Source of the DNA: a virus
Taxonomy: Duplodnaviria > Heunggongvirae > Uroviricota > Caudoviricetes
IMG/VR virus record: IMGVR_UViG_3300029841_000009
Span: 1 to 64,000 of that record
Length of the DNA: 64,000 nt
Strand: one strand, 5' to 3'
Shown here: positions 1-64,000 of the stretch, in pieces
Layout of the letters: every line of letters begins with the position of its first letter
Position numbering within the stretch: position 1 is the first letter of the stretch
Translations under genes and position numbers: made by a program
Notes under the pieces: model-generated
What the model was told of the DNA's origin: nothing
The model's input: only the letters and a program-made list of their open reading frames with translations
The model's database searches: none

Positions 1-46
1 AAAACGAGTATTTTTAGTCATCCTGTTTACCTCTTTCTCAGGAAGT

Positions 47-9629: not shown

Positions 9630-9650
9630 AAGTTTCTATACTCCTGCAAT

Positions 9651-9672
9651 AAAGGGGCCGAAGCCCCTTGTC
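9651..9672 (-). terminator. intra-operon rho-independent terminator / attenuator
   Basis: GC hairpin AAGGGGCTTCGGCCCCTT followed by TTTATT on the minus strand, between two structural genes. Confidence 0.4.
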
Positions 9673-9685
9673 TGATTCGCGAGGC

Positions 9686-10030: not shown

Positions 10031-10031
10031 C

Positions 10032-10469: not shown

Positions 10470-10520
10470 CTTCTTTCTCCATTAGTGGGTCTGTTACGAC
10501 CCACAGGTTAATAACAGGCG

Positions 10521-11513: not shown

Positions 11514-11521
11514 TTCCTCTC

Positions 11522-12223: not shown

Positions 12224-12516
12224 TCCTGTTCACTGGCCTCTTTGGCCATCTTCAAATACTGTTCAGGGCAATGCGCCATAACGCGCTGAAACAGTTCCAG
12301 CGCCAGATTGCGTTGCCCCTCATTAAATGCCATTGCCATAGCGTCCATCGGTGAGATAGCGGAAAACACACGGCCTTTCTCCAGCACCGACCAGACAACG
12401 CGACGCCCCTGTTCACTGCTCATGACAAAGCGAATGTCATCAATTTCACGCTGTGCCATGTCACGTTGCTTACGGGCGTTTTCTTCTTTCAGTTGATCAT
12501 CTTCGTAATCTGTCAT
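12220..12516 (-). CDS. hypothetical protein
   Basis: 98-aa ORF overlapping the portal stop and scaffold start (translational coupling). Confidence 0.4.
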   Translation of the reverse strand: MTDYEDDQLKEENARKQRDMAQREIDDIRFVMSSEQGRRVVWSVLEKGRVFSAISPMDAMAMAFNEGQRNLALELFQRVMAHCPEQYLKMAKEASEQE

Positions 12517-14192: not shown

Positions 14193-14206
14193 TTCAATGA
14201 CTCCGG

Positions 14207-14413
14207 TTACTGACCAAGCAGCGTTTTACCGCTGGTATTAGCGGTTGATGTGTCGCCCTGAGAACCGGTAAGCAGCGTAGAACTACGACCAGCAGCAGCG
14301 CGACGGCGACGAGTTTCTTCGTCGCGGGCATCAACAACGGCGGCATCCTGCTCCTGTGGTGCTGCCTGAACTTCTGGTGTTGCAGGCACTGATGGTGAGC
14401 TACCCATGCACAT
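14207..14413 (-). CDS. small low-complexity ORF upstream of portal
   Basis: 68-aa Ala/Thr/Gln-rich ORF; weak coding evidence. Confidence 0.2.
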   Translation of the reverse strand: MCMGSSPSVPATPEVQAAPQEQDAAVVDARDEETRRRRAAAGRSSTLLTGSQGDTSTANTSGKTLLGQ

Positions 14414-14840
14414 ATCAATGACTCCGTACGCAATTAAATTATTACCAATTTAACCACATATGATTTATTTATCGTAGATAGTTGACATTTAACGCACAAA
14501 TTATTACCTTTCAGGTAACCAAAGAATTCATTCCGGTTACTAACCTGACTGGCTTGTCGTTAAATTGAACAGGTGGAGTGAGCTTTTATTTTGAGCAGTA
14601 CGGCGTATGGCACATGCGCCGATAGCGGTCTGGATACGTTTAAGGGGCACCCTCCCTGGCTGTGGCAAACGAACCAGGTAGCCGGAATGTGCAAGTCGAG
14701 CGGTTTTATTCCGCGCACGGGGATTCACCATCCCGGCGATTCGGTGTGACGCCTCGGAAGAGACGAGGGTACAACGATGAGAGCATTTATGGAGCCGCGA
14801 CAAAGTGTGGCGCCTTAACAGGCTAAGTGCTCTCAGCGTT

Positions 14841-14917
14841 GTGGCATTAGCTCAGTCGGACAGAGCAACCGCCTTCTAAGCGGTTGGTCGCAGGTTCGAA
14901 TCCTGCATGCCACGCCA
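14841..14917 (+). tRNA. tRNA-Arg (anticodon UCU), CCA-encoded
   Basis: Cloverleaf traced by hand: acceptor GTGGCAT/ATGCCAC, D-arm GCTC/GAGC, anticodon stem ACCGC/GCGGT with loop CTTCTAA, T-arm GCAGG-TTCGAAT-CCTGC, discriminator G and CCA; closely resembles E. coli argU. Confidence 0.85.
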
Positions 14918-15115
14918 GAATCACGCCTAAGGACCGTGATGCCAGAAGTTCCAGGTGCTTGGCGGTGATGGTTTCCCTTGAAGGACTATCACCACCCTTT
15001 TTACAGCAGGACGCCATTGCGATGACTTCATGCTGTAAACCAGTACAGCCACGGAAGGCATAACTCATTGCTTCCAGTTCGCCCGATTCGCCGGGCATTT
15101 TTTTAAGGTGAGATT

Positions 15116-15487
15116 ATGAACGACCAGCAAATCGAAAAAGAAATCGTTGAGAAAGGCAAAACGGCACCGCGCGTTACGCCAGACCATATCGAAGGCATTA
15201 TTGCTCAGGAGGCATATTTCACAGCAGAAGATGGTGCCTTTGGCAAAGCCATAAAAGAGAAACATACTGGCGGAGAGGTAAACTACCAGCCGCACGAATC
15301 ACTTTCTCTGCTGACGTTCTGCGTCCTGGTGCTGCGCAACGGCTTCACCGTCACCGGAGAGAGCGCCTGTGCAAGCCCGGAAAACTTTGATGCGGAAATT
15401 GGTCGGAAGATTGCCCGGCAGAATGCTGTAAACAAAATCTGGATGCTCGAAGGTTACTTGCTGAAGCAGAAGCTAAGCGAGCAATAA
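15116..15487 (+). CDS. conserved hypothetical phage protein (moron, same strand as tRNA)
   Basis: 123-aa ORF on the opposite strand to the flanking structural operon; followed by a hairpin plus T-run. Confidence 0.5.
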   Translation: MNDQQIEKEIVEKGKTAPRVTPDHIEGIIAQEAYFTAEDGAFGKAIKEKHTGGEVNYQPHESLSLLTFCVLVLRNGFTVTGESACASPENFDAEIGRKIARQNAVNKIWMLEGYLLKQKLSEQ

Positions 15488-15504
15488 CGCCGTGACATGT
15501 CACA

Positions 15505-15537
15505 ATCAGCCAGCCTATGAGCTGGCTTTGTTTTATC
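15505..15537 (+). terminator. rho-independent terminator
   Basis: Hairpin AGCCAGC-CTATGA-GCTGGCT followed by TTGTTTTAT just after the 123-aa ORF. Confidence 0.4.
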
Positions 15538-15577
15538 CTCACCAGAGGATATCAGCAGCATTATCCCATCCAGCGGA

Positions 15578-17053
15578 TTAAGCATAGGGATCGTAATCTG
15601 TGATGGCTTTGCCTTGCTGGTTCTGCTGCCCGGGAATTCGCAGACGCTTCGACACAGGGAACGCAAACGTCAGCAGTAGCGCATCGCCTTTACCAGGAGA
15701 ACGCCCAAGTCGCTCTTTGATATCTTCCTTCGGTTCGATAACGATTTTACCGTCCACGCGAACTTTGTACTCTGCCGTCGACAGGTCGTCCGCTGTTTCC
15801 TGGTCATCCAGCATGCCGCCGAGCCTCAGCCATGTCTTGCATGAGTTGAACATCTCCCCACGCTTGTTGAGCATCTGCGGGTCAGTAGACGCGCCACCGA
15901 ACGGAACAAGTTGCCATGTACGACCCCAGCCGTCACCGATTGACTTCAAACCGGTTCCGTAACCGAAGTCGATGAACACCGCGTCAGCCTGATACTGGTC
16001 TTCAAAGTCAGCGATACGCTTCGCCATAATCAGATCGTCGGTAGTCTTGTTGCCAGTCCACAGCACCTTACTGTGTAGCCCCTGCCGCAGGTATATCACC
16101 GCGTCATCAACGCCTGAATATGCCGGGTCAACACCGATTATCACCGGAGCATGTGCAACCTGCGCAGCGGTTACCACCCGTTTCATTGCCTCGTCAGTAA
16201 GACCGGTAGGGATAAACTGCAATTCAGATGCATCAGGGAATATGCCACGCACACGGATTTTAACGAAGTCGCTATCTTCCCCGTAGTCATCAACCCATTT
16301 CTGCAACTGCTGTTTGTTGGTGCCTTCCACCGTCCTGCTGTCAATCTGCGCAGTTTTCCAGCGGTGTTTGTATTTGCGGAAACATTCACGGAAACGCCCG
16401 GTGTTACGTGTAGGGTTTCCGAAAGCCACCCAGATAATCTCAGTGTCTTCGTCCGTTAGCGCACCCTCGGCAACTTCCCACACCAGATCCGCAATGTTCG
16501 ACGCTTCATCAAATACCACAATGATGCGTTTACGCTCGTTGTGTAGTCCGGCGAATGCCTCAGTGTTGTGCTCAGACCAGGGGATTGCGTCAGCTCGCCA
16601 CCGCTTGTCGTGCCCAGGGTCATTGCTGTACATCGCGGTAGCGGTACAGGTAAACCAGTCTTTCGTGATAGCAAGGTTTGACCACTTGATAATTTCCGGC
16701 CAGGTCTTCGTTCGTAGCTGGTTGTCGGTGTTGGCGGTCACCACGACCTTACAATCCTCGCAAGTGGACATGCCCCAGTTGATCAGCATTGAGATGAATG
16801 CGGATTTACCAATACCGTGACCAGAAGCACGTGCCAGCATAAGCGGCTGATATCGCGTCTCTGGATTCTGCAGGTGATCACGTATCTCTCGGAACGCATC
16901 AGCCTGCCACTGACGTGGGCCGGTGGCATGTGCCAGTTCAGTCCCCTCTTCCCCCCATGGGAACGCATAGAGGGCATAGCCAAGCGGATCGTGAGTGAAC
17001 CCTGCAATATCCTCGATTAACTGCTCTTCAGGAGATAACGCTGTATCTGTCAC
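15578..17053 (-). CDS. terL: terminase large subunit
   Basis: 491 aa; Walker A-like GHGIGKS, Walker B-like VVFDEAS, C-terminal nuclease-like region; overlaps the small-subunit gene. Confidence 0.8.
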   Translation of the reverse strand: MTDTALSPEEQLIEDIAGFTHDPLGYALYAFPWGEEGTELAHATGPRQWQADAFREIRDHLQNPETRYQPLMLARASGHGIGKSAFISMLINWGMSTCEDCKVVVTANTDNQLRTKTWPEIIKWSNLAITKDWFTCTATAMYSNDPGHDKRWRADAIPWSEHNTEAFAGLHNERKRIIVVFDEASNIADLVWEVAEGALTDEDTEIIWVAFGNPTRNTGRFRECFRKYKHRWKTAQIDSRTVEGTNKQQLQKWVDDYGEDSDFVKIRVRGIFPDASELQFIPTGLTDEAMKRVVTAAQVAHAPVIIGVDPAYSGVDDAVIYLRQGLHSKVLWTGNKTTDDLIMAKRIADFEDQYQADAVFIDFGYGTGLKSIGDGWGRTWQLVPFGGASTDPQMLNKRGEMFNSCKTWLRLGGMLDDQETADDLSTAEYKVRVDGKIVIEPKEDIKERLGRSPGKGDALLLTFAFPVSKRLRIPGQQNQQGKAITDYDPYA

Positions 17054-17727
17054 TGATTGCCATCCTGACGTTCTTTCAGTCTCTTCCTGGCTGCCGCTAT
17101 GCGATCAGCAATTGTCACATTCACATTAACATCCAGGCGTTCTTTGAATGCGTTGACGTCGACGTGCTTACCAATCAGTTCGAGGTTCTTCACCTTGTCA
17201 GGCCATTTAATTTTTTTGAGGATGCCAACCAGCTCTTTCTCGTCTCCACGGCCTTCGAACATGTCGGCCAGTTCGAAACCTGTCAGGTACTGCCGCCAGA
17301 CCTTAGGCCATTCCGAGACCGGCTTGATGCTCATATCGTCGTTGAGAATGTCAATCACGTCCATCTGGTCGATCTCCACCAGGCGCATGAGAACGTAATC
17401 AGCACTGACGCGCATTCGTTTGTTGCGCTCCTCCATCAACTCGGCAATCCGTTTCTGAATGCGTTCATCGCGCATCATGACACTGGCTTTAACTGCCGCT
17501 GTATTTGGGGAGAATCCTGCATTAATCGCAGCCTGAGTCTGGTTTTCAGGCGTTTTGATGTATGACTGGCAATAAGCCTCCTGCATTGCTGTTAGTGGCT
17601 TAAATTGCGTTGATTTGCGTTTATAGGTTTTAGGTTCAGCAGGCATCATAACCACCGTGGTAATAGTTACCGTTGTGGTAATAGTACCATGCAAAATAAA
17701 GCCGCCATAGTTGGCGGCAGTATTCAA
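17050..17727 (-). CDS. terS: terminase small subunit
   Basis: Motif QEAYCQSYIKTPENQTQAAINAGFSPNTAAVKAS typical of small terminase DNA-binding domains; true start may be the internal Met (MMPAEP). Confidence 0.6.
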   Translation of the reverse strand: MNTAANYGGFILHGTITTTVTITTVVMMPAEPKTYKRKSTQFKPLTAMQEAYCQSYIKTPENQTQAAINAGFSPNTAAVKASVMMRDERIQKRIAELMEERNKRMRVSADYVLMRLVEIDQMDVIDILNDDMSIKPVSEWPKVWRQYLTGFELADMFEGRGDEKELVGILKKIKWPDKVKNLELIGKHVDVNAFKERLDVNVNVTIADRIAAARKRLKERQDGNQ

Positions 17728-17767
17728 AACCCATCAAATTCATCATGCATAACCCACTCGTGACATG

Positions 17768-18121
17768 TCACAATATTAATTTCGTTTCATGCCAGCCTTT
17801 AGTCACCCAGCATTGCGAGTCACCATTACACGGGCATGAATTCACAGGAACTCTCTCGCCGCACTTACCGCAACGTTTTCTGCTGATCGATTTTATACGC
17901 CCGTGCACGCGCGCATCATCCTGGCGGATCAGTAACGCTATATACTCACCAAATTCGTAAGGCGCACGCCCGGGGCGACGTGTGGCACAGTTACGCTCCA
18001 GCATTTCAATTTCCTGAGCATCAAGCACAATCTCCAGCTTACGCACACCAGATGCAGCTTGTCTGGCTCTCTGAGCGGCTTTGCGCTCTGCTGCTGCCTT
18101 AGCCATTACCATATCCACCAA
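17768..18121 (-). CDS. hypothetical protein with Cys-rich C-terminus
   Basis: 117 aa, TTG start in the track; C-terminal CGKCGERVPVNSCPCNGDSQC looks like a zinc-ribbon. Confidence 0.35.
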   Translation of the reverse strand: MVDMVMAKAAAERKAAQRARQAASGVRKLEIVLDAQEIEMLERNCATRRPGRAPYEFGEYIALLIRQDDARVHGRIKSISRKRCGKCGERVPVNSCPCNGDSQCWVTKGWHETKLIL

Positions 18122-18191
18122 ACTTCACCAGACATGATTCTCGCAATCACTATCATCACCAAAGTGATAATCACAACTTTAACTGGCGGCA

Positions 18192-18569
18192 TCATTCACC
18201 ATCCTGCTCCGGCGGTTCTGGCAGCGGCATCCAGTGGGTTACCTCCTTGAGATACAGGTCTTCGCCACCACCGTCATCCCAAGTGGGCTTGCCATCATTA
18301 AACCAGTCGCCATATACGCCGACCTGAGTGTTGGGGATGCTTGGTGGGTAGTTGTTTTTAAAGTCAGCAGCTAACACATAGCATTGTCGCTCTCCCATTT
18401 CTGGCATTCGTTCACTACAGCTTATCCAACTCTCCGGAGTTACCGGAGAGTTGCCAGCCTCATACGCCACACGCATCCAGTGCATAAGCGTTTCAGTGCT
18501 CACACAGCCGCAATCAACATCAATTTTGCCGTGCTGCTGTTCCAGCCATTGCTCAAGCGTAGTGCTCAT
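18192..18569 (-). CDS. DUF551-like phage protein
   Basis: 125 aa; C-terminal VTHWMPLPEPP motif recalled as characteristic of DUF551. Confidence 0.45.
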   Translation of the reverse strand: MSTTLEQWLEQQHGKIDVDCGCVSTETLMHWMRVAYEAGNSPVTPESWISCSERMPEMGERQCYVLAADFKNNYPPSIPNTQVGVYGDWFNDGKPTWDDGGGEDLYLKEVTHWMPLPEPPEQDGE

Positions 18570-18799
18570 TTTTCATCCCCCCGATGATGCCATCTGCATC
18601 GCATCTCATAACACCCCCACTCAACACGAAAACCACATAGCCTGTGCAGATCCACCCACTTCTGCGCCATCGCTGGCGACGTGTAAATCACAGTGAATGC
18701 GTTATCTTCGTTGTCGATTTGCGTAAACGTCACTTTGTACAACAACCCACCGTCGACACATGCTGTGTTCAACGATTTATTGCTAATACCCTCAATCAT
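18566..18799 (-). CDS. hypothetical protein
   Basis: 77-aa ORF, 4-nt overlap with neighbours. Confidence 0.35.
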   Translation of the reverse strand: MIEGISNKSLNTACVDGGLLYKVTFTQIDNEDNAFTVIYTSPAMAQKWVDLHRLCGFRVEWGCYEMRCRWHHRGDEK

Positions 18800-19443
18800 T
18801 CGTACTCACCCCCCGCTGTTTTGAATTTGATCTCCGCTGCCTGCAATGCGTGTTCGACGTCGAAGCGGTCCAGCCATCCACCAAAGTGGTGCGGCATCAT
18901 TACCACCCGCTCACCGCTATTTATTGGGTGGCCCATACGGGGTTCGTAGCCGTCCGGTAACTCGACTTCCCGCGCTTCCAGTTCTGCTATGCGCTTCTCT
19001 GATGCTTCAAGTAACGCCTGCTTATCGCGTAGCGCTTCTTCCAGTTCAGCAACATGGCACTCACTATCAATAAGGTTGTTCTCTGCGGCTTCCAGCTCAA
19101 CACGCAGCTTCCCTACCGTTAGCGCAATATCCTCGTTCTCTTGGTCGCGGCGTTTGATGTATTGCTGGTTTCTTTCCCGTTCATCCAACAATGCCAGCAC
19201 GGTAACTGGATTGGCTGCGGCGATGAATTCAGCATTGGCCTGCTGTTCCATTTGGAAATCTTCATCGAAACCGCTTTCAGGATGCGCTCCTTCAATTCTG
19301 CAAATGGGAAGATATCCAACAACTTCACGATGAATTAGCGCATCACCAGCATCAAATCTCTCCTCTCCATATTCTAGCGACCACACACCACACGTTGCTT
19401 TTTCTGCCTTAGCACGCAGTGCCTGGTAATTAATTTCGCTCAC
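18796..19443 (-). CDS. Ead/Ea22-like protein
   Basis: N-terminus SEINYQALRAKAE and coiled-coil middle; GTG start preceded by AGGAGG. Confidence 0.6.
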   Translation of the reverse strand: MSEINYQALRAKAEKATCGVWSLEYGEERFDAGDALIHREVVGYLPICRIEGAHPESGFDEDFQMEQQANAEFIAAANPVTVLALLDERERNQQYIKRRDQENEDIALTVGKLRVELEAAENNLIDSECHVAELEEALRDKQALLEASEKRIAELEAREVELPDGYEPRMGHPINSGERVVMMPHHFGGWLDRFDVEHALQAAEIKFKTAGGEYE

Positions 19444-19684
19444 TGGCTGCCTCCTGCTTTTCTGCCTTCAACACCATGCGAGAACCATCATCCAGCTCCC
19501 ACACTATCTCACCACCTTCAGCCATGACCAGTTGCCACACCAATTGAGCAGCCTCATTGGTAACATCACGACCTGGATCATTGCCAACGCGCATACGTCC
19601 ACCTTCAACATCGCGCATTTTTGCCAGCATGATAGTTTTTGATAGCGGTGAAAAACCAAGCTGTAGTCGTGCTGAATTACTCAC
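19430..19684 (-). CDS. hypothetical protein (probable GTG start)
   Basis: Track ORF 19430..19717; AGGAGG-N6-GTG at codon 12 suggests the real start at 19684; the junction sequence is shared with the neighbouring Ea22-like genes. Confidence 0.35.
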   Translation of the reverse strand: MSNSARLQLGFSPLSKTIMLAKMRDVEGGRMRVGNDPGRDVTNEAAQLVWQLVMAEGGEIVWELDDGSRMVLKAEKQEAASERN

Positions 19685-20277
19685 TGGTTGCCTCCTTTGC
19701 GAAGCTGTTCCGCCCATTCTTCAAGGGATTTCTCCGCATATTCACCGGACAGGCCATCAATCGGATGCGCTTCATTAACCAACTCTTCTTTCGCTGACAA
19801 AATCATGCGTGTAACGTCGAAAACTTCACGCAAAGACTTATTGATAAATCCGTGATTGAACGCAGCAGCAAGACGGCTGGCGGTATAGTTAATCCCCTCG
19901 TTGCGTGCTTCCGCACGAATTTCAGCCAGAAAAGCATCGGTAGCTGGAGTTTCGCTGTGGTGTAGGGCATCATTGATAATCATTGCAGCAACACCAGCCT
20001 GCCCTGCATCCGTGACCGACACATGCTCAAGAGTTACGGCCATTGCGTGTTTCAGTCCGTCGTTCTCCACCACCAGCGCAGCGAGATTAGTCTCATACTC
20101 CGCAATTCGGCACATAGCATCGATATTTGTGTCCTCCAGCCGCTTAATTTCATCCAGTAGCGCCAGCACAACCTGCGGTGTGACCTTCATACGAAACGCG
20201 AGCAATTTTTGCGGCGTTGCCACGACTTTTATTGCTTCTGCTGCCTCACGCAGTGCCTGGTAATTAATTTCGCTCAC
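19681..20277 (-). CDS. Ead/Ea22-like protein (second paralog)
   Basis: Track ORF 19681..20307; AGGAGG-N6-GTG start at 20277 gives the N-terminus SEINYQALREAAE, paralogous to 18796..19443. Confidence 0.55.
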   Translation of the reverse strand: MSEINYQALREAAEAIKVVATPQKLLAFRMKVTPQVVLALLDEIKRLEDTNIDAMCRIAEYETNLAALVVENDGLKHAMAVTLEHVSVTDAGQAGVAAMIINDALHHSETPATDAFLAEIRAEARNEGINYTASRLAAAFNHGFINKSLREVFDVTRMILSAKEELVNEAHPIDGLSGEYAEKSLEEWAEQLRKGGNQ

Positions 20278-21034
20278 TGGTTGCCTCCTGAATACGCTTA
20301 AACTCAATTACCCATACCCACGGGTTAGATAGCCAGTTCTCTTGCCCGTAAATACCGCGCCAGATATCACCAAAGCCAACGCGATAAACAGCTTCCGGCG
20401 GTGTAATCTTGTACGTCGCCGGAGATGCGCCTTCCGCTTTAGCATCTGCCTCGCTCATGTCATGCAGCCGTTCCACACGCACGTCGGTAATTTCCAGCAA
20501 AATACGCGAAGCCCAGCGCGGCATGTGAATTGATGGACACCACCCGCCATCAAACTTTTCATTCACAGTGTGAGGTTTCCAGTCGGCATCATCGGGTATC
20601 GACCACAGGCCGTAATCACCAGGCTTTTGCTCGCAACTGGCCCGATAAATCCTTGCTGCGTTCTTCTCATCGCCACGACAAAGGTTGTCGTTCCAGTCCA
20701 CACTGCAACCATCCTCATTGCCTAATATCGCCCACGCTTCACGGACCCATATGCGATCACCAACGTTACCGAACGGACATAAACCATGTTCAGGTGCATC
20801 CATAACGTGGGTATAGACACCATTGCGTTTCTTTGTCGGTTTACGGATAACCAGGCAGTTATCGGCCCTGACATTTTTTACAGGTCGGCGAGTCTGCGTC
20901 TTCCTGCCTTCGAGGATGGCCCTGACCATCGCATCATTAAAAATCATGCCGCGCTCTTTCATCTTGCTCACTTCAACTCCTCCCGACGACGTTCCTGAAG
21001 CTCTAGCATTGCTGCTCGGAAATCCTGCCACCAT
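20264..21034 (-). CDS. hypothetical phage protein (possible ASCH/PUA-like fold)
   Basis: 256 aa; MVRAILEGRKTQTRR resembles the GxKxxExR N-terminal motif of ASCH domains; start may be an internal Met. Confidence 0.35.
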   Translation of the reverse strand: MVAGFPSSNARASGTSSGGVEVSKMKERGMIFNDAMVRAILEGRKTQTRRPVKNVRADNCLVIRKPTKKRNGVYTHVMDAPEHGLCPFGNVGDRIWVREAWAILGNEDGCSVDWNDNLCRGDEKNAARIYRASCEQKPGDYGLWSIPDDADWKPHTVNEKFDGGWCPSIHMPRWASRILLEITDVRVERLHDMSEADAKAEGASPATYKITPPEAVYRVGFGDIWRGIYGQENWLSNPWVWVIEFKRIQEATSERN

Positions 21035-21333
21035 TCCTCATCTGCAACGGGGGTGTTCCGCTCCAGCACCTTGTCCGCATCGGAGATCAGGTTTGCCAGA
21101 CTCTTGTCTGAAATCTTCGTTACCGGAGTCGTTGGTTGCTCAACCTGCCCGATAGGTTTTATCGTGCTCAAAAGGAGGCGACGGCGGGAAAGTGGTGCCC
21201 CACAACGACGGCCATCTTCCTTGCGATATGTTTCTTTCGGACCAACACACCAGGTTGTCGGCGTCTCGCGCAACTTCACTTTTTTCTCACCATCATTGGT
21301 AATGATTATTCCGGTATGGGTTTTGATGCTCAT
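20968..21333 (-). CDS. hypothetical protein
   Basis: 121-aa basic ORF; overlaps the upstream ORF in another frame, so the start is uncertain. Confidence 0.3.
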   Translation of the reverse strand: MSIKTHTGIIITNDGEKKVKLRETPTTWCVGPKETYRKEDGRRCGAPLSRRRLLLSTIKPIGQVEQPTTPVTKISDKSLANLISDADKVLERNTPVADEEWWQDFRAAMLELQERRREELK

Positions 21334-21632
21334 GCCACAGCCCCTCTCAACGGCTTAACTTTGGCTAATAAGGTGTTAAACAACATGGAGTTAGGATTCA
21401 TGCCAAATGGCAATTCCGGTTTAGCGGAGTAGTACAGGCAACCATTTATTTTCCTGGTTGTTATCTGTCCTTCGGCAACCATGCTTCTCAGTCTGCAACG
21501 CATAGAGTTCTGCGACACACCAATGTGCTCCGCGATTACGTCCACTTTTGAACATGGGTGATCGGTCAGGAAATTAATCACATCTTGGGGGTTAATAATT
21601 TTGCGTTTCATTGTCGAGGCGTCCTTATACAT
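21330..21632 (-). CDS. small hypothetical protein (possible DNA-binding)
   Basis: 100 aa; likely start at the internal Met (MKRKII, about 21611) with an AAGGA ribosome-binding site; a hairpin terminator and AT-rich motif lie upstream. Confidence 0.4.
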   Translation of the reverse strand: MYKDASTMKRKIINPQDVINFLTDHPCSKVDVIAEHIGVSQNSMRCRLRSMVAEGQITTRKINGCLYYSAKPELPFGMNPNSMLFNTLLAKVKPLRGAVA

Positions 21633-21688
21633 TTATATAAATATATAATTCTATATACGGCGGGAGACATCCCGCCGTAGGCTTACTG

Positions 21689-22756
21689 TCAGGCTTTCAA
21701 TAGCGATTCTTTCAGATATCGGGCATCAGCCAGGGCATTTGGAGTAATCTTGCGAACCCATGCATTACGGGTTGGACTCCACTTAAAGGCGCGTGATTTA
21801 AGCAGCGAACGAATGTTTGCCTCTGGTTTGCCAGGGAAATAAAACAGGATGCGGTTATCCTCTGGATCTATCTCCATAGAAAAGTCGTCGTATTCTTCGC
21901 GCTGTGCTCCTGTTACAGACTTGACCGATTCAAGCTCCTTAATACGGCTCTGTAGTCGTTTGATCTCGGCGTTATTGTTGCTCAGTGCGTATGAAGGGAA
22001 TCCGATGTGCCCACAGAAATCTCCGGCCAGTAACTCTTTGGCTTCGCTTTCTGTAAACCTGAGATCGATTAATGCAGAAAGCTGCTGTAATTGGTCTTTT
22101 TTGTATTTGCGAATGGCCTTATTTGCGGCCTTCATTTTGACGTGTGACTTCATGCAGCCTTGCAGCTTACGAAGCAACTTAAATAGCGCATCAGGATCAT
22201 CAGACGAAATTCCATTACGACCAACACCTGCGGCTTTGCTCTCGTAGTGTGATGCTTTACTTTCGCATTCAACAAACGCTTTTCTTAATAACGCATCAGC
22301 TTTAGACAAACGGCGGCGATGGCCTTTCGCGCTATAATGGTCAACTAAAATCGGCTGGCCTAACGGGATCACATCCAACAGGTCATGCGCTCGCTTATGC
22401 GCTACCGCACCTTCTTTTCTGGCTTTTTCTGCACGAGCAATATATCGGGCAAGACGCGCGTTCTGGCGTTCCTGATAGGTGTTTACGTAATCATCTCCGC
22501 GCTGCTGCTGTTCAAGCCATGCTTTGCGCAGATCTTCTGTTACGTCCACCAGCTCCGCAGGGATACAACCAGTTTGGGCTTCATAAGAGTAACCATCCTC
22601 ATAGATACGCCCATCATCTTCAACAAAGAAAAAGGTTTCGTGCTCATCGCTTTTGACCATACGACCATTAACATGGCGTAATAGGTAGCCAGTATCAGTG
22701 CTTAACAGGCTGTTAGGGTTGTTGATCCAGTCAGAAATAATTACTTGTTTATTCAT
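21689..22756 (-). CDS. conserved hypothetical protein
   Basis: 355-aa ORF driven by promoter-leader repeat copy A; followed by hairpin CGGCGGGA-N4-TCCCGCCG. Confidence 0.5.
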   Translation of the reverse strand: MNKQVIISDWINNPNSLLSTDTGYLLRHVNGRMVKSDEHETFFFVEDDGRIYEDGYSYEAQTGCIPAELVDVTEDLRKAWLEQQQRGDDYVNTYQERQNARLARYIARAEKARKEGAVAHKRAHDLLDVIPLGQPILVDHYSAKGHRRRLSKADALLRKAFVECESKASHYESKAAGVGRNGISSDDPDALFKLLRKLQGCMKSHVKMKAANKAIRKYKKDQLQQLSALIDLRFTESEAKELLAGDFCGHIGFPSYALSNNNAEIKRLQSRIKELESVKSVTGAQREEYDDFSMEIDPEDNRILFYFPGKPEANIRSLLKSRAFKWSPTRNAWVRKITPNALADARYLKESLLKA

Positions 22757-22870
22757 CAGATTTCTCCGGTTTAACCAGGGCGGGTATCGCTCGGTTTCGG
22801 GTATAACCTTAGGAAATTTTTTCCCACCTGTAAAGCACTTTTTATATAAATCTATAATTATATATTTATA
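22757..22870 (-). repeat. promoter-leader repeat, copy A (TTTACA-17-TATGGT with shared 5' leader)
   Basis: About 110 bp nearly identical to 32755-32870 and 63334-63449; lies immediately 5' of the 21689..22756 start. Confidence 0.7.
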
Positions 22871-22925
22871 GATTTTCGATGTTCCCGATGTCTACACACC
22901 ATCAAAACAGCTCAAAATGACACTT

Positions 22926-25289: not shown

Positions 25290-25415
25290 GTTAAAACCAC
25301 GATATGTGGTATTAAAACCACATATCGTGAGTTTTTCAATGGGCAAAACAAAAAATAACCTTCTATTTGTGGTCCACCTCTCGTCTTACCATGTGAAAAC
25401 CACTAAATGTGGTAA
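25290..25415. promoter_or_regulatory. divergent operator/promoter region (OR/OL-like) with ACCAC-N5-GTGGT operators
   Basis: ACCACGATATGTGGT (perfect palindrome), ACCACATATCGTGAG and ACCACTAAATGTGGT between the Cro-like and CI genes. Confidence 0.6.
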
Positions 25416-25450
25416 TGTATAAATAACCCACCATTCACGATTGATGAGAC

Positions 25451-26107
25451 ATGAAAAGCAACGACGAGAACATCAAGAAAGAAATAGGTCTGCGCATTCA
25501 GACTCTACGGAAACAATCCGGCATGACTGCCGGAGATCTCCAGCAAGTCACTGGAATAGGCTTAAGCACCTTGCAGAACTATGAGGCCGGATTAAGACAA
25601 CCATCTATACCTGCCATCAAGAAAATCGCGCACGCCCTGAAAGCATCAGCGCCTTATATCGCGTGCTTAACAGATAACCCGTTCCCACCCCAGAATACTA
25701 ACGCTCCTGTTATTCCTGGGCTTGTAGCTATAAAAAATGACATAGCATCGCACGCCGGAGAAAAGCCAGTGCTGGCGATAGAACAGGAGATTCTACGAAG
25801 CAAGAACATCAACCCATCGTCTCTGTCAGTTCTCCAGAGCAACGATGAGTTAATGTCACCAACAATATCCCCTGGCTCCCAAGTCCTGATTGATACAGAC
25901 GATACAGAGATTCATGAGGGGATCTATGCCCTTGAAGACAGAAATGGCCTGGTTGTTTTGAGGCACTGTAGAGTCATACCGGGTGACAATGCTGTTATGC
26001 TGTCAACCGAAAGGGATGCTGAAATGAACACTAAGCATCTGAATAACGAGGAATTTAAGCGTTATAAAGTTCTGGGCCGCGTAGTTAGTGTTGTCAACTG
26101 GTTATGA
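25451..26107 (+). CDS. cI: CI-type repressor (HTH_XRE N-terminal domain plus S24 LexA-like autopeptidase domain)
   Basis: 218 aa; N-terminal HTH (LRKQSGMTAGDLQQVTGIGLSTLQNYEAG), C-terminal Ser/Lys dyad context (LMSPT ... RYKVLGRVV). Confidence 0.8.
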   Translation: MKSNDENIKKEIGLRIQTLRKQSGMTAGDLQQVTGIGLSTLQNYEAGLRQPSIPAIKKIAHALKASAPYIACLTDNPFPPQNTNAPVIPGLVAIKNDIASHAGEKPVLAIEQEILRSKNINPSSLSVLQSNDELMSPTISPGSQVLIDTDDTEIHEGIYALEDRNGLVVLRHCRVIPGDNAVMLSTERDAEMNTKHLNNEEFKRYKVLGRVVSVVNWL

Positions 26108-26199
26108 TACACAGCACGGCGAAAGCCGTGCATTTCTACGCTCAAAAAAACCACATTTTGTGGTTTTGACAACATGTGAAAGTATAAAAGAGGCTACGC

Positions 26200-26577: not shown

Positions 26578-26600
26578 CAAGCGGGCTAACGCCCGCTTAT
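26578..26600 (+). terminator. hairpin terminator
   Basis: AAGCGGGC-TAAC-GCCCGCTT followed by an A/T-rich run. Confidence 0.4.
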
Positions 26601-26705
26601 ATGATTATAGATTTATATAATTATATAAAACGCTTTTCATCCGCCAAAAAGTTGGTTATGCTTACCTCGTTCTATAAATATAGATTTATAGAATTATATA
26701 ACCAA
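26585..26705. repeat. AT-rich iteron-like repeats upstream of parA (candidate centromere / par operator)
   Basis: Repeated TATAGATTTATA(T/G)AATTATATAA units; a further copy lies at 27377-27420 between the two par genes. Confidence 0.45.
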
Positions 26706-26709
26706 ACAC

Positions 26710-27378
26710 ATGGAGTCTCGACAAATGACTATCTCTGTAGGTATTTTCAACGGAAAAGGCGGCGTAACCAAATCAACAATTGCCCGTGCTTTAGCAGTTG
26801 CTTATGCAAAGGCTGGCTGGAATGTATGCCTGATCGATATGGATGTGCTTAACGGAACGGTAACGCGTTGGGTACAACGCAGAATGGCCAACAATATCGA
26901 ACCAGCAATCGCGGCGCAGCCGTGCGGCACACCATCACAAGTCCAGAAAATCATCGAATCAGAAGTATACGACCTGGTTATCGTCGATGGCGGTGCCTAC
27001 GCATCTGAATCAGTACCGAAGCTCTCTGAATTTCTGGATATGGTTATTTTGCCAACCAGATTCTCTACCGATGACCTGGAAACCACCGTTAACACAGCTC
27101 ACGGCATCGTTAAAAAGGGTGTACCAATCAAGAAAATTTGCATGGTGTTTTCCGGCGCGGCTGAAAACGAAGCTGACTATATTGAAGCCCAAGAGTACCT
27201 GGCTAATACGCCATACTTTGTTGTCGATAAGTACATTCCCCACAAGCCAGCTCTGAGCAAAGCTCAGGATAAGGGCTTAAGCCTTATTGAGTGCTCATAC
27301 GTTGCGCCACGCAAAAAGGCAGACGATGTTATCCAGGGGATTATCAATCAGCTTGAGGCTCTGACTACTGCCGCGTAA
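26710..27378 (+). CDS. parA: ParA-family partition ATPase (small type Ib-like)
   Basis: Deviant Walker A GKGGVTKST near the N-terminus, about 220 aa with no N-terminal HTH; the start may be the second ATG (26725) preceded by GGAG. Confidence 0.8.
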   Translation: MESRQMTISVGIFNGKGGVTKSTIARALAVAYAKAGWNVCLIDMDVLNGTVTRWVQRRMANNIEPAIAAQPCGTPSQVQKIIESEVYDLVIVDGGAYASESVPKLSEFLDMVILPTRFSTDDLETTVNTAHGIVKKGVPIKKICMVFSGAAENEADYIEAQEYLANTPYFVVDKYIPHKPALSKAQDKGLSLIECSYVAPRKKADDVIQGIINQLEALTTAA

Positions 27379-27421
27379 TATATAATTATAGTTTTATAGA
27401 TTTATATAAAAGGGGATACAC

Positions 27422-27699: not shown

Positions 27700-27882
27700 T
27701 TGGCCGTCGCGACACAACAAGGGGAATTTGTTATGTCCGAGCAACAATATACACGGTTACTGAAAACTCGTCTAACCGACCTCAAACGGCTGCAAGCTGG
27801 TTGCTTATTTGCCCTGCTATCTACCAGGCCAGAATGGGTACGTGAAGCAGTTCTGAAAGGTTTAATGCGCTCCAGCGTTTAA
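27700..27882 (+). CDS. small hypothetical protein
   Basis: 60-aa ORF (likely start MSEQQY) ahead of a strong hairpin. Confidence 0.3.
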   Translation: MAVATQQGEFVMSEQQYTRLLKTRLTDLKRLQAGCLFALLSTRPEWVREAVLKGLMRSSV

Positions 27883-27894
27883 ATTCAACCATAA

Positions 27895-27925
27895 AAAAGG
27901 CCCCCGAAGGGGCCTAATCGCTACT
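27895..27925. terminator. bidirectional hairpin terminator
   Basis: AGGCCCC-GAAG-GGGCCT with an A-run 5' on plus (T-run on minus). Confidence 0.5.
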
Positions 27926-28043
27926 TGCTGCTAATGTTTATCGTCACATTCAGAGCGTTATCAGTAATCTTCCAACCCTCCCCATGTGGCGTAAACAAAG
28001 CTCCAGTAACAACGATAAAAATACACATACAGTATTTTTTCAT
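27921..28043 (-). CDS. small hydrophobic peptide (about 40 aa)
   Basis: Internal Met of track ORF 27921..28103 gives MKKYCMCIFIVVTGALFTPHGEGWKITDNALNVTINISSK; ends at the terminator hairpin. Confidence 0.35.
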   Translation of the reverse strand: MKKYCMCIFIVVTGALFTPHGEGWKITDNALNVTINISSK

Positions 28044-28539
28044 TGTATGGCCCTTACAGGCCGTTTCACGGCATCCCCACCGACGAAAACAACGCGAGAG
28101 CAAGCACGGCTGCTTGTGCTTGCATGTACGGCAACGGAGAATCCTCCCCTAAAGTCGGTGCCCGGGTGCGAATCGGCGGGAAGGTCCACAGGTATTTTAC
28201 GATTATTTTAAGATTAGTTATAGGAAAGAAATTAAACGAAAAAACTCGTTTATTTTCACAAAATCAGTAACCTACCCACAATCTGTGAGTTTGCAGGCAC
28301 AACAAGAACCACAATTTTATGAAGCATAATAGTGGACTATTATTACCTTTTGGGTAAAATTAACTTGCTGCTTGTGCTTGCGTGGTTGTTTATACAACAA
28401 CGTAATGCTGAAAGGACCGCGAATCCGATCAGCACGAAAGAACCGTCCTCAATAGGGCGGTTTTTTTGTTTCTGCCTACCAATAAACCCACACTATGTGG
28501 TTGTCTCTGTTAAAATCCCGCCGTATTGACATAAATGCG

Positions 28540-28640
28540 CCATTGGTGGACACTTTCCGAGCCGTAGCAAAATCTACGGTCGGGATTGGAACCCCGATAA
28601 TCATCATGGCGCATACCGCGTTAGCGGTTTTTTTATGCGT
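28540..28640 (+). ncRNA. candidate structured regulatory RNA upstream of the antirepressor operon (immI/c4-like antisense RNA)
   Basis: ORF-free; successive hairpins (CCGTAG-caaaat-CTACGG; CGGG-ATTGGAA-CCCG) ending in ACCGC-GTTA-GCGGT plus T7; loop ATTGGAA is complementary to the downstream loop GTTCCAAC. Confidence 0.35.
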
Positions 28641-28799
28641 AAAGCACTGCTACACCCAAATTATGGTGGGGCGTGCGGGGGAGTCGTAAGACTCGCCGGA
28701 TTCCATGGTGACCGGTAGTTCCAACCCTGTACGTCTCACCACCCAATGATTGGAACCAGACGGTGGTGAGTATCCTTAACCTTTAAGGGAACTATCACC

Positions 28800-28991
28800 A
28801 TGACAAACCTACCCCATGACTATTACGTCAACCTCGTAAAGATCCTTCTCAAGAAAGCCTCATACGCCGATAAATTCCGCCTGGCTGAAATCATCGAGCG
28901 CGAAGCTATGCGCATCGCCAGCAACGATAACGCTGTTTCTGTCGCAAAAATCTCCCTCGTAACCAAAGTAGTTATGGGAGGTGCAAAATGA
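28800..28991 (+). CDS. small ORF translationally coupled to the antirepressor (icd-like position)
   Basis: 63 aa; stop overlaps the antirepressor ATG. Confidence 0.4.
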   Translation: MTNLPHDYYVNLVKILLKKASYADKFRLAEIIEREAMRIASNDNAVSVAKISLVTKVVMGGAK

Positions 28992-30169
28992 AAACGCTTC
29001 CGACCGTTAACACCCTACAGCCTATCCTGCATAACCAGCTCCCCGTTATCACTACTGAACTACTGGCGCAATTGTATGGAACCGAGCGCCAACGTCTGAC
29101 AAACAATTTCAATAGAAACAAGGAACGTTTTATAGAAGGTAAACACTTTTTTAGGATAGAAGGTAAAGAGTTACGAGAGTTGAAGAACAAAAACTCTTTA
29201 AGAGTTCCTGTGAGAGTAGTTAACGAACCATCTTTAAGAGGGTTACAAATTCCCCCGAAAGTTCGCTCCCTCATCCTCTGGACAGAACGCGGGGCTGCAC
29301 GTCACGCCAAAATGCTTGAAACTAACCAAGCGTGGGATGTGTTCGAACGGCTGGAAGACAGCTACTTCAACCAGAACGCACAAACGGCCGCGACCGTAAC
29401 CGTCTCACCAAACAATGCTCGTGAGGTTGTCGATACGCTCAACGCCAAACCAATGTATTACGTTAAGGTGTGCAACAACGAGCCACTCACAACCTCAGCC
29501 GATGTTGCCCAAGCATTCAGCACCACAAACAATTCCATCGTTATGGCCATCGATGCGTTACGCATTCCTCGCACGGCTGCGGCGCGTCACTTCTTTAAAG
29601 AACAACGACCGCTGGAAGGAAGCGACCGCGAAATAACAATCTATCGCATGACAAAAGACGGATTTACCTTGCTCATGGAAAGTATCGACGGTCCAGGCGT
29701 GAAGGATATCAAGCTGGCCTACATTGAAGCCTTTAACGCTATCAGCAGCGTGTTAAAGGCAGAATACGAGCGAATGCTATACAACCGACTGTATCAGGAA
29801 ACAAAGATTATCCGAACGGCAACAGAACATCATCGGCTATTAACGGAACCAAACTACCGCAAGACACTAATCAAAGAGTTTGACAAGGCGACGGAGAAAA
29901 CTAAAGCGGCACTAAATCTACCAACAATGACTAAAGATGATGTGATATCAGCCTTACTTCTTGATCTGCTCAGAAACGCCAGAGCACTTATCAGTTTTGA
30001 CGAAAACCTGAATCCTCAGCTCAAGCTACTACCACCGACAGGCAAAGTAGTCGACCAAGCAGATCACAACAGCATACTCAGCGTACTGGATGCAAACCTG
30101 CCAGCCAGGACACTACAGGAGCTGATAAAAATATCTGCGGATAAACTGGCCGCAGGTGCAAAACCATAA
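28988..30169 (+). CDS. ant: phage antirepressor (AntA/ORF6N-like N-terminal domain)
   Basis: 393 aa; N-terminal VITTELLAQLYGTERQRLTNNFNRNKERFIEGKHFFRIEGKELREL resembles antirepressor N-domains; sits downstream of the RNA-like region. Confidence 0.55.
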   Translation: MKTLPTVNTLQPILHNQLPVITTELLAQLYGTERQRLTNNFNRNKERFIEGKHFFRIEGKELRELKNKNSLRVPVRVVNEPSLRGLQIPPKVRSLILWTERGAARHAKMLETNQAWDVFERLEDSYFNQNAQTAATVTVSPNNAREVVDTLNAKPMYYVKVCNNEPLTTSADVAQAFSTTNNSIVMAIDALRIPRTAAARHFFKEQRPLEGSDREITIYRMTKDGFTLLMESIDGPGVKDIKLAYIEAFNAISSVLKAEYERMLYNRLYQETKIIRTATEHHRLLTEPNYRKTLIKEFDKATEKTKAALNLPTMTKDDVISALLLDLLRNARALISFDENLNPQLKLLPPTGKVVDQADHNSILSVLDANLPARTLQELIKISADKLAAGAKP

Positions 30170-32376: not shown

Positions 32377-32757
32377 TTACTTAACGAGGAATAAAAATGG
32401 TTTATCGTTCGGCGGTGTACTCGGGGCTGGCTCGCTTTTGCTCATACGATCAGTGTACCAGGCCAGCTCCTTGTCAAAGTAAGCCTGATTAAAATAGGCC
32501 ATGAATGTGGTTTCAAATCCATAACGACCGCTAATACGCAGCATCTGATTGCCGTTCTCTGTTTCCAGATATACCTGGGCACGTTCCTGATTCTCCTTCA
32601 GCCAAGTTAAAGCCTCGTCGCACGAGGACACACGATACTCATCATCGTAGCCGTCATCGATGCGGCTTGAAGAAGAACGGCAAATCACGCCAACAGAACC
32701 AGCCAGGATAGTTTGAATTTTAAGGAAAGCGTTTTTGCGGATTTTAATCATGCTCAT
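32377..32757 (-). CDS. hypothetical protein (cargo of promoter-leader repeat copy B)
   Basis: 126-aa ORF starting right at the repeat. Confidence 0.45.
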   Translation of the reverse strand: MSMIKIRKNAFLKIQTILAGSVGVICRSSSSRIDDGYDDEYRVSSCDEALTWLKENQERAQVYLETENGNQMLRISGRYGFETTFMAYFNQAYFDKELAWYTDRMSKSEPAPSTPPNDKPFLFLVK

Positions 32758-32870
32758 CGGGTTATCTCCGGTTTAACCAGGGCGGGTATCGCTCGGTTTC
32801 GGGTATAACCATAGGAAATTTTTTCCCACCTGTAAAGCACTTTTATATAAATCTATAATTATATAATTCT
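32755..32870 (-). repeat. promoter-leader repeat, copy B
   Basis: Nearly identical to 63334-63449 and about 95 percent to 22757-22870; contains TTTACA-17nt-TATGGT and a GGAGA ribosome-binding site. Confidence 0.7.
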
Positions 32871-32919
32871 ATGAGCACAAAAAAGCCCCTTTGCAACAGG
32901 GGCTTATCATTCGTTCTGA

Positions 32920-63070: not shown

Positions 63071-63336
63071 TCATCATCTCCTGCCGCACATACAACCTCA
63101 CAAAAAAAATCAGCAGAATGTTTCTCCTTGAACGAATGACGCTCAAAACCGCACTCAATATCAGGCGCAAAAACATCCACCACATACGGTCTTTCAGAAT
63201 GTTTGTTTTCCCAACGATAAACCGTAGTGACGTTGAAATGTTTTAACGCTTCACGGAACTCAACGCTGCCAGTCAGGTTTTTTGAGGTCAGGTATTGCAG
63301 GAGGTTTTTTACTACTTCACGGTCTTGTACTTTCAT
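63067..63336 (-). CDS. hypothetical protein (first gene of repeat-C cassette)
   Basis: 89-aa ORF starting at the repeat. Confidence 0.45.
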   Translation of the reverse strand: MKVQDREVVKNLLQYLTSKNLTGSVEFREALKHFNVTTVYRWENKHSERPYVVDVFAPDIECGFERHSFKEKHSADFFCEVVCAAGDDE

Positions 63337-63449
63337 CGGGTTATCTCCGGTTTAACCAGGGCGGGTATCGCTCGGTTTCGGGTATAACCATAGGAAATTT
63401 TTTCCCACCTGTAAAGCACTTTTATATAAATCTATAATTATATAATTCT
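63334..63449 (-). repeat. promoter-leader repeat, copy C
   Basis: Nearly identical to copy B across about 115 bp including the start-codon context. Confidence 0.7.
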
Positions 63450-64000
63450 ATACCACTTGCCAGAGAGCATCATGCAACTGGATACTTCCATTGCACTGGT
63501 TGCCCCAGCCATGCCAACCATCAGGTAAATCACCGCGAGCAAACAGCTCAATACGAGGAACATCACCTAACAGCCTTACCAGCTTGTCACGAACCACATC
63601 AGGCTTCCGAGAATGCTCCAGACGAGGCGATGTAAACGACTGAATGATCCCCGCATCAAGGCGGGTCGGCAATTTGCCTTTTACCGCAAACAAGCAATCT
63701 TCACTGTTTGCACGAGTCATATGCCCCATCCCCATCACCAGCTTATCTGGTTGTCGGCTACCACATTTGTTCCATGTGAAGCCCTTCATGGTCATAAGCC
63801 TGAATCCCCATGCTTTCACCACCAGCAACGCTTCTTCTGGCTGAGTCGGAACCCACCACATGGCCAACAAACACGATTCAGGATTAGCAAGCTGCCAGAC
63901 AGGAATACGAGCAATATCCTCAGCTTTCATCGTTGGATACTTAAAACCAGCTCCACGATTCCCATCCTTACACTTATCTTTGTATTCCCAGGGGGGATCT
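63448..64000 (-). CDS. MT-A70-family N6-adenine DNA methyltransferase (5' end beyond window)
   Basis: Track ORF 63448..63930 stays open in frame to the window edge, where the upstream codons read DPPWEYKDK (the catalytic DPPW motif). Confidence 0.6.
   Translation of the reverse strand, partial: DPPWEYKDKCKDGNRGAGFKYPTMKAEDIARIPVWQLANPESCLLAMWWVPTQPEEALLVVKAWGFRLMTMKGFTWNKCGSRQPDKLVMGMGHMTRANSEDCLFAVKGKLPTRLDAGIIQSFTSPRLEHSRKPDVVRDKLVRLLGDVPRIELFARGDLPDGWHGWGNQCNGSIQLHDALWQVV

Follow-up and report, generated by a model that had tools for sequence, protein, structure and literature searches.

Seven arrays of an 8-bp repeat as candidate centromere and operator sites of a ParG-like ribbon-helix-helix partition protein in an Escherichia coli phage-plasmid

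The 64,000-nt stretch of viral DNA analysed here (positions 1 to 64,000 of IMG/VR record IMGVR_UViG_3300029841_000009, Caudoviricetes; hereafter the window) carries a parA gene, a downstream gene for an 82-aa candidate ribbon-helix-helix (RHH) protein, and an AT-rich motif that recurs around both genes and at more distant sites. The motif consists of exactly seven 32-bp arrays (S1 to S7), each made of four head-to-tail 8-bp units with the consensus TATAKAWT. It is quite likely that these arrays are the cognate sites of the 82-aa RHH protein and that this protein, together with ParA, constitutes a type Ib partition system in a phage-plasmid of ~48 kb. Most likely, the arrays serve as the plasmid centromere and as the operator for par autoregulation, with the dispersed arrays acting as additional operators or extra centromere sites; the partition protein probably regulates phage genes as well. 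The computational results behind this proposal are the arrays and their specificity, the RHH fold, a conserved synteny, a family-wide 8-bp periodicity, the covariation of protein and repeat, and the recurrence of the repeats at dispersed sites.

Three of the arrays (S3, S4 and S5) bracket parA and the gene of the 82-aa protein, S2, S6 and S7 are located at promoter-leader cassettes, and S1 lies beside a terminator. The arrays and the features of the par locus are listed by position, with scores in bits from the weight matrix described below.

21624-21655, minus strand: array S1, units TATAGAAT TATATATT TATATAAA TGTATAAG
22841-22872, minus strand: array S2, units TCTATAAA TATATAAT TATAGATT TATATAAA
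26598-26629, plus strand: array S3, units TATATGAT TATAGATT TATATAAT TATATAAA, 44.4 bits
26634..26662, plus strand: putative par promoter, -35 TTTTCA at 26634-26639, 17-bp spacer, -10 TATGCT at 26657-26662
26671-26702, plus strand: array S4, units TCTATAAA TATAGATT TATAGAAT TATATAAC, 41.3 bits
26725..27378, plus strand: parA, a 217-aa small Walker-type ATPase; a longer open reading frame (ORF) begins at 26710
27379-27410, plus strand: array S5, units TATATAAT TATAGTTT TATAGATT TATATAAA, 43.1 bits
27422..27670, plus strand: 82-aa candidate centromere-binding protein, with a basic disordered N-terminal tail (MAAPSKPPKKNSKGVPP...) and a C-terminal RHH domain
32842-32873, minus strand: array S6, units CATAGAAT TATATAAT TATAGATT TATATAAA
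63421-63452, minus strand: array S7, units TATAGAAT TATATAAT TATAGATT TATATAAA

The motif is real and not a by-product of AT-rich intergenic DNA, because its counts far exceed those in shuffled sequences and a wide gap in matrix score separates it from other AT-rich tracts. In particular, the 15-mer TATAGATTTATATAA occurs 11 times in the window with at most one mismatch, compared to 0.01 expected, and the skeleton (TATA-N4)x4, again with at most one mismatch, is found at the seven arrays and nowhere else, compared to an expectation of 0. Further, a weight matrix trained solely on the par-locus arrays (S3 to S5) assigns 38.6 to 46.8 bits to all seven arrays, including the four dispersed ones, while the 38 other tracts that are 80% or more A+T peak at 14.2 bits. 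When 40-mers were drawn at random with the dinucleotide composition of the arrays, 32 bits were reached in 0.8% of trials. An earlier note on this DNA had described a recurring AT-rich motif that is tandemly repeated 5' of parA and in the gap separating the par genes, with similar copies just before the -35 of three promoter-leader repeats and next to a terminator; S3 and S4, S5, the cassette arrays, and S1 (which adjoins a hairpin at 21660-21680) match this description, and the motif is far commoner across the window than AT-richness would predict. Separately, an isolated copy of ~1.5 units (TGTAGATTTATATAA) in the virion-gene region, at 45525-45539 on the minus strand, scores far below the arrays and is probably due to chance.

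The 82-aa protein is predicted to have an RHH fold that is remotely related to ParG. Residues 1 to 40 are basic, rich in lysine and proline, and predicted to be disordered, resembling the tail of ParG, and the RHH domain comprises a beta-strand (residues 40-46, QMAFNVD) and two helices (residues 47-59 and 64-80). A HMMER scan of 1.8 billion representative proteins identified 105 relatives, nearly all of 60 to 95 aa; among the 73 that were aligned, Pfam models for RHH_10, Antitox_RHH and ParG (weakly) matched 30, 19 and 5 sequences, making RHH_10 the nearest model. A word-indexed protein search returned close homologues and nothing further, and the protein belongs to PHROG 6024, labelled 'unknown function'. 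Aligning the family profile to TP228 ParG with hhalign yielded a probability of 75% and an E-value of 2.4e-5, with an alignment that spans exactly the RHH domain. Moreover, AlphaFold2 with a deep alignment modelled residues 41-80 as an extended segment followed by two helices, with a predicted local distance difference test (pLDDT) score of 90 to 96. The top-ranked Foldseek matches to this model are solved RHH proteins (the PutA DNA-binding domain, CdbA, CopG, ParG, AmrZ and Arc), with target template-modelling (TM) scores of 0.7 to 0.86 for the best of them and weak E-values of 0.3 to 2, the domain being short. The family's Pfam matches, the hhalign alignment and the structural model all uphold the RHH assignment made in the earlier note. 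By analogy, the protein would work like ParG without being a member of the Pfam ParG family (PF09274).

ParA and the layout of the locus agree with a type Ib system. Such systems use a small Walker ParA of about 200-220 aa, and the 217-aa protein has a deviant Walker A motif (GKGGVTKST) and no N-terminal helix-turn-helix (HTH). It matches the Pfam CbiA/ParA/MipZ model, covers positions 2-200 of 203 in NCBIfam NF041546 'ParA family partition ATPase' (E 4e-22, under the curated cut-off), and has weak sequence matches in the PDB to TP228 ParF (4dzz, 5u1g); the PGAP label of its counterpart on the reference plasmid pP136-7 is 'ParA family protein'. Directly 3' of parA lies the small RHH adaptor with its predicted flexible N-terminal tail, and S3, S4 and S5 provide repeat arrays beside the operon that overlap its promoter region. 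The putative par promoter is located between S3, which covers about -72 to -41, and S4, which covers about +1 to +32. A gap of 4 bp separates S3 from the -35, and one of 9 nt separates S4 from the GGAG of parA; S5 occupies the intergenic space between the two par genes, starting immediately past the parA stop codon. The promoter was assigned because the order of array, -35-like element, about 16-19 bp, -10-like element, array, Shine-Dalgarno and parA is kept in nine lineages despite their differing sequences.

Two further observations concern the par locus. A start context, GGAG-yCTCGACAA(A)TG, follows S4 (26712-26727, before parA) and S1 (21609-21626 on the minus strand, before a MarR-like gene); it follows those arrays that are not upstream of a -35, and it stays constant before unrelated genes while the arrays change (L012, L013, L016, L017 and L021, in the lineage numbering used below). 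Downstream of the RHH gene, a small ORF (MSEQQYTRLL..., 27734-27882, plus strand) is preceded by a GC-rich hairpin and CGACACAACAAGGGGAATTTGTTATG; an ORF with the same opening residues, hairpin and leader follows the RHH gene in L012, L013, L016 and L021. It has no Pfam or PHROG match, and may be a third gene of the par operon.

The pairing of arrays and RHH protein extends across divergent lineages. Relatives of ParA with 31-56% identity were collected by ParA alignment from genomes, metagenomes and viral contigs, yielding 55 usable loci. An RHH-family ORF lies directly downstream of parA in 55 of 55, and parA and this gene are the sole genes common to all of them. In the non-coding DNA flanking par, an offset of 8 gives the best self-match in 41.3 of the 55 loci, compared to 4.8 of 55 in a control inside the parA coding DNA. 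The unit itself differs between lineages: TTTAAATA in L012, ATATAAAT/ATATCTTT in L013 and L016, TTCGTTAA in L014, TTCTTTAA in L017, TTAGCGAA in L022, and nnnGTACA, repeated four times on both sides of the RHH gene, in L019. TAACGC and TTAGCTAA are found among other relatives. Several of these units (TTCGTTAA, TAACGC, TTAGCTAA and the GTAC core) are not A/T tracts.

Further, the unit covaries with the beta-strand of the RHH protein that is predicted to face the DNA. For example, NFK strands accompany TTC(G/T)TTA in about a dozen loci, NFR accompanies TAACGC, GFK accompanies TTAGCTAA, LLL(R/Q)L accompanies ATATAAAT, and AFNV accompanies TATAGATT. Among protein pairs with less than 50% helix identity, units agree at 5.28 of 8 positions when both outward-facing residues are shared and at 4.05 of 8 otherwise, with overall divergence matched (0.32 versus 0.31). 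None of 5000 label permutations reached the observed difference, in a test that corrects only partly for phylogeny, so that some effect of shared ancestry may persist. This covariation supports binding, if only indirectly. Lineages with an NFN strand use two different units, and a simple one-to-one recognition code was accordingly rejected.

The dispersed arrays follow the same rule. In about ten lineages with long flanks, sites were scored with a matrix built from each lineage's own par arrays; further copies of the respective unit turned up away from the par locus in L012, L013, L016, L014, L017, L160, L165, L170 and L173, the last four being distant viral contigs whose ParA is 33-39% identical to that of the window. 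The gap between the dispersed copies and the background is large in L013, L016, L014 and L017, and smaller in L012. Homologous promoter-leader cassettes are among the dispersed sites in L012, L013, L016 and L160. In L160, the cassette array overlaps the -35 and spacer of the promoter, which, judged by sequence, is the classical position of a repressor. Across lineages the cassettes keep their promoter and leader, yet their array changes in step with the par locus of each lineage; this is hard to explain unless one protein reads both.

Within the window, S2, S6 and S7 lie in a single 119- to 122-bp repeat whose copies are 94-100% identical. Each copy is a cassette of an array, a promoter and a leader of ~50 nt that ends at the ATG of a different gene, and the array sits 5-6 bp upstream of TTTACA-17 bp-TATGGT (TAAGGT at S2). 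As all three lie in one repeat, they are not independent occurrences within this genome; independence comes from the other lineages.

22752..22872, minus strand: cassette 1 with S2, -35 TTTACA at 22829-22834, -10 TAAGGT at 22806-22811, ATG at 22756, before a 355-aa DUF3560 gene
32754..32873, minus strand: cassette 2 with S6, -35 TTTACA at 32831-32836, -10 TATGGT at 32808-32813, ATG at 32757, before a 126-aa gene
63333..63452, minus strand: cassette 3 with S7, -35 TTTACA at 63410-63415, -10 TATGGT at 63387-63392, ATG at 63336, before an 89-aa gene

The 126-aa gene of cassette 2 is followed by a 90-aa HTH gene, and the 89-aa gene of cassette 3 heads a leftward operon extending into the genes for the ParB/Srx-methylase, packaging and the virion. 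S1 immediately follows the hairpin at 21660-21680, and the Shine-Dalgarno and start of the 93-aa MarR-like gene (21611..21330) come right after it.

The cassettes have other conserved features. A 13-bp palindrome, GGAAAAAATTTCC, lies within the 17-bp spacer of all three promoters (22812-22824, 32814-32826 and 63393-63405), and relatives carry TAGGACTAAAAGTCCTA or a similar sequence at this position; it is probably the operator of a second regulator. The leaders (63333-63388, 32754-32808 and 22752-22806, minus strand) form a predicted hairpin that pairs GUUAU with AUAAC beside the Shine-Dalgarno (-13 kcal/mol, z -3.5). Their motif, ...GGCC..GGCC..CCGGAG.t..CCCGATG, is recognisable down to contigs whose ParA is 33% identical (L012, L013, L016 and L160), and the leader matches no Rfam family.

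The element is an E. coli phage-plasmid of ~48 kb. Sequences 98-100% identical to its par region are found on 58 non-mobilizable plasmids (about 47-52 kb; Escherichia, Salmonella and Klebsiella) and in three 49-kb Yersinia phages; the region is present in 71 of 5426 complete E. coli genomes (about 1.3%), almost always on a plasmid. For example, a family member of 48,488 bp (NZ_CP009073.1), whose RHH gene is 98% identical, resides in E. coli ATCC 25922, a strain common in quality control. On the reference plasmid pP136-7 (L002), the replication protein is an IncFII-type RepA, a RelE/ParE-family toxin is encoded next to an HTH protein, and there are genes for a CI-type repressor, for lysis, and for a complete head and a contractile tail of the P2 kind. 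This plasmid has eight arrays, the eighth (22827-22858 of pP136-7, in a stretch outside the window) being located after the last lysis gene and before a tRNA gene. Within this close family the units drift (TATAGATT, TATATATT, TATATAAT and TATAGAAT), and the TATA-N4 skeleton is kept at every site. A scan for exact 22-mers in one genome per species found five chance matches in AT-rich genomes and nothing else. Phage vB_YpM_HQ103, of 32 kb, is unrelated.

If the RHH protein binds the arrays as related proteins do, one dimer would occupy each 8-bp unit by inserting its two-stranded beta-sheet into the major groove, the unit being read as a 4-bp TATA core and a 4-bp A/T spacer, and four dimers would cooperatively coat each 32-bp array. 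The lysine- and proline-rich N-terminal tails would touch nucleoid-bound ParA-ATP and stimulate its ATPase activity, leading to the segregation of plasmid copies. S5 would provide a third block at the par locus, with S3 to S5 jointly forming the centromere; since S3 and S4 flank the par promoter, occupancy of this sandwich suggests autorepression. The same protein would also occupy S2, S6 and S7 at the three phage cassettes, and S1 between two genes of one such operon; with the protein at these places, the four arrays would therefore be extra centromere-like sites, operators, or both. The dispersed arrays could make expression of the three phage operons depend on how much partition protein is present, serve segregation, or do both. 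Binding and the number of dimers bound are inferred here, as are the centromere activity and the sign of regulation, be it repression or activation. Overall, the RHH fold, the synteny in every locus, the 8-bp periodicity, the strand-unit covariation and the dispersed re-use favour the centromere and the shared RHH operator, which the earlier note had listed as separate options, as two roles held together.

More tentatively, and with the balance tilted against it, the RHH protein could be a copy-number-coupled second immunity factor that links partition with lysis-lysogeny. In the plasmid-prophage state, RHH protein on the cassette arrays and S1 would hold the phage operons at a set level; runaway replication after CI cleavage would then supply eight arrays per new genome, titrating the protein and releasing or switching the cassettes. 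If so, one small protein would wire partition and lysis-lysogeny together across a large, mostly environmental family of ~40-kb phage-plasmids, whose elements keep the cassette and swap its DNA 'address' together with the beta-strand.

Several results weigh against the arrays being RHH-bound centromere and operator sites. At the protein level, the 82-aa sequence has no direct match in Pfam (E up to 1), NCBIfam or the PDB, the best PDB match of its family profile is a remote one (ParG 1p94, E 0.088), and to these are added the weak Foldseek E-values. At the level of specificity, to the residual shared ancestry in the covariation test is added the heterogeneity of the NFN-strand group, whose units are TCTTTA or TTTAAAT; moreover, no 8-bp array was found at 5 loci with an ATRV strand or at at least two further loci (L035 and L144). 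The arrays are short, at four units apiece compared to 12 in parH and 8 in OF. With 8 of 12 matches to the consensus, the par promoter and cassette 1 went uncalled in a simple promoter scan. The dispersed cassette arrays of the window are upstream of the -35 and not over it, making repression not the sole possible outcome. Finally, a literature search found no publication on this phage-plasmid family or its par system.

Among other explanations, the one that fares best holds that only S3 to S5 are functional and that the dispersed copies are passengers of a duplicated cassette or sites of a nucleoid protein such as H-NS. The location of S2, S6 and S7 within one repeat agrees with spread by duplication, and TpA-rich DNA is a good H-NS substrate. 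We regard this explanation as improbable: the cassette arrays of L012, L013, L016 and L160 each carry the par-type unit of their own lineage, which would demand concerted change; S1-type arrays, which lie outside the cassette, are still retained in several lineages; and the close family varies its units while keeping the TATA-N4 skeleton everywhere.

It is more doubtful still that the arrays are operators of another lineage-specific regulator, such as the 124-aa protein encoded upstream of parA, the CI-type repressor, or the MarR-like and HTH proteins of the cassette operons. Several regulators are indeed encoded nearby, and the strand covariation could partly stem from shared whole-genome ancestry. 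Against this, the gene upstream of parA is not conserved in lineages that keep the arrays, which led to the rejection of the 124-aa protein, and CI has its own palindromic operator candidates (ACCAC-N6-GTGGT), which led to its rejection as well. Further, the arrays flank parA and the RHH gene in unrelated contexts (L014, L019, L022 and L160), only these two genes are common to 55 of 55 loci, and tandem 8-bp units are a known RHH geometry, whereas HTH repressors typically bind palindromes.

There is very little to recommend the idea that the arrays are generic A/T-rich upstream (UP) elements, or curved DNA, acting through the alpha subunit of RNA polymerase with no dedicated protein. UP elements are A/T-rich tracts at -40 to -60 of a promoter. 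The arrays exceed 90% A+T, and four of the seven (S2, S3, S6 and S7) occupy a UP-like position at about -41 to -72, whereas S1, S4 and S5 are upstream of no -35. The 38 other AT-rich tracts do not match the motif, the periodicity is strictly 8 bp with exactly four units per array, relatives place the units that are not A/T tracts at equivalent positions, and the units covary with the RHH beta-strand. The earlier note's suggestion that UP-like AT tracts could suffice is accordingly abandoned; when unoccupied, the arrays may double as weak UP elements. Replication iterons were also dismissed, as RepA is of the IncFII type and encoded far from the arrays; replicons of this type are not known to use iterons.

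Other features of the window lie beside these subjects. The ACCAC-N6-GTGGT palindromes, likely CI operators, cluster at 25290-25420, where the CI-type repressor gene (25451-26107, HTH and S24 peptidase) and the leftward operon diverge, and a further one (26146-26165) precedes the 124-aa gene. Next to the par operon, Rfam models match a ryfA-like RNA (27893-28189, minus strand), an isrK-like RNA (28561-28634, plus strand) and a C4 antisense RNA (28659-28746, plus strand), just upstream of an ORF6N-domain gene (28988-30169, plus strand; a 393-aa ORF whose pP136-7 counterpart is labelled 'ORF6N domain-containing protein' by PGAP); together they look like an ImmI immunity module in the style of P1/P7. 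The left 19 kb of the window (1-19400) is ~97% identical to the virion/lysis module of the lambdoid podophage TL-2011b and O157 typing phages, contains no arrays, and joins the phage-plasmid backbone at ead/Ea22-like genes, at about 19400-20300. As a result, the window holds two complete virion gene sets, of podovirus type at 1-19 kb and of P2-like myovirus type at 39-61 kb. The junction was found in no complete E. coli RefSeq genome, and could be a hybrid, a cointegrate or a misassembly.

So far, the par genes of this element have carried no labels beyond 'ParA family protein' and 'hypothetical protein'. The analysis proposes a function for PHROG 6024 and more than 100 representative small proteins, with binding sites predicted base by base, and its natural table of beta-strand residues and 8-bp units could aid the design of RHH specificity. 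If the dispersed arrays are operators, the system would be an RHH-based phage-plasmid counterpart of pSM19035 omega and N15 SopB, bearing on the choice between plasmid maintenance and lytic growth and on the incompatibility between co-resident phage-plasmids.

The MetJ met-boxes are tandem 8-bp units, 2 to 5 per operator, each bound by one RHH dimer with cooperativity between neighbours. The same tandem 8-bp geometry is predicted here; in contrast, MetJ is a chromosomal metabolic repressor with a corepressor, and has no ParA partner and no role at a centromere. In the phage-plasmid N15, the centromere sites reportedly lie dispersed along the genome, close to phage promoters (Grigoriev and Lobocka 2001). 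The N15 Sop partition system affects the expression of late phage genes (Ravin, Rech and Lane 2008, as cited in PMC11652158). SopAB resembles the present system in belonging to a phage-plasmid and in the dispersal of its sites, and a tie to phage gene expression would be a further likeness. The two differ in type: N15 has a type Ia system with a large ParA bearing an HTH, an HTH-type SopB and palindromic sopC-like sites, whereas here ParA has 217 aa and no HTH, the adaptor is an 82-aa RHH protein, and the sites are tandem.

The closest likeness at the par locus is to ParF-ParG-parH/OF of TP228, an E. coli plasmid system, while the present host replicon is a phage-plasmid. One ParG dimer binds each 4-bp box, with AT-rich 4-bp spacers and cooperative coating, and the array is both centromere and operator (PMC3130281). 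Both systems have a small Walker ParA and a protein of ~76-82 aa whose flexible N-terminal tail precedes a C-terminal RHH domain, and both place 8-bp-periodic arrays 5' of the operon; when the 82-aa family profile is compared with PDB sequences, ParG ranks first. They differ in the box (ACTC in TP228, TATA here) and in its arrangement (runs of 8 and 12 there, discrete four-unit blocks here), and here arrays are also found inside the operon (S5) and at four distant sites by phage promoters.

The closest likeness in the proposed regulatory role is to delta/omega of pSM19035, a plasmid of a Gram-positive host (Firmicutes). Omega is both centromere binder and global regulator; its parS arrays overlap three promoter regions, and at least four contiguous repeats are needed to activate ParA (PMC9499535). 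An analogous role is proposed for the 82-aa protein: in both systems an RHH partition protein has several short-repeat arrays at the promoters of several operons (here one array type at the S2, S6 and S7 cassettes and, as S3/S4, at par), and the arrays here have exactly the four repeats that are the functional minimum for omega. In contrast, the omega units are 7-bp WATCACW heptads in arrays of 7-10, compared to 8-bp units in fours, and the hhalign probability between omega and the 82-aa family is a marginal 20%, so that neither heptads nor clear homology are shared. Omega targets copy control, par and toxin-antitoxin genes; the targets here would be three phage promoter cassettes. Overall, the system is of a kind already known, in that by analogy it would work like ParFG and delta/omega; what is new is a previously unannotated protein family with its candidate sites, and what is distinctive is the conservation of partition arrays at a family-wide phage promoter cassette.

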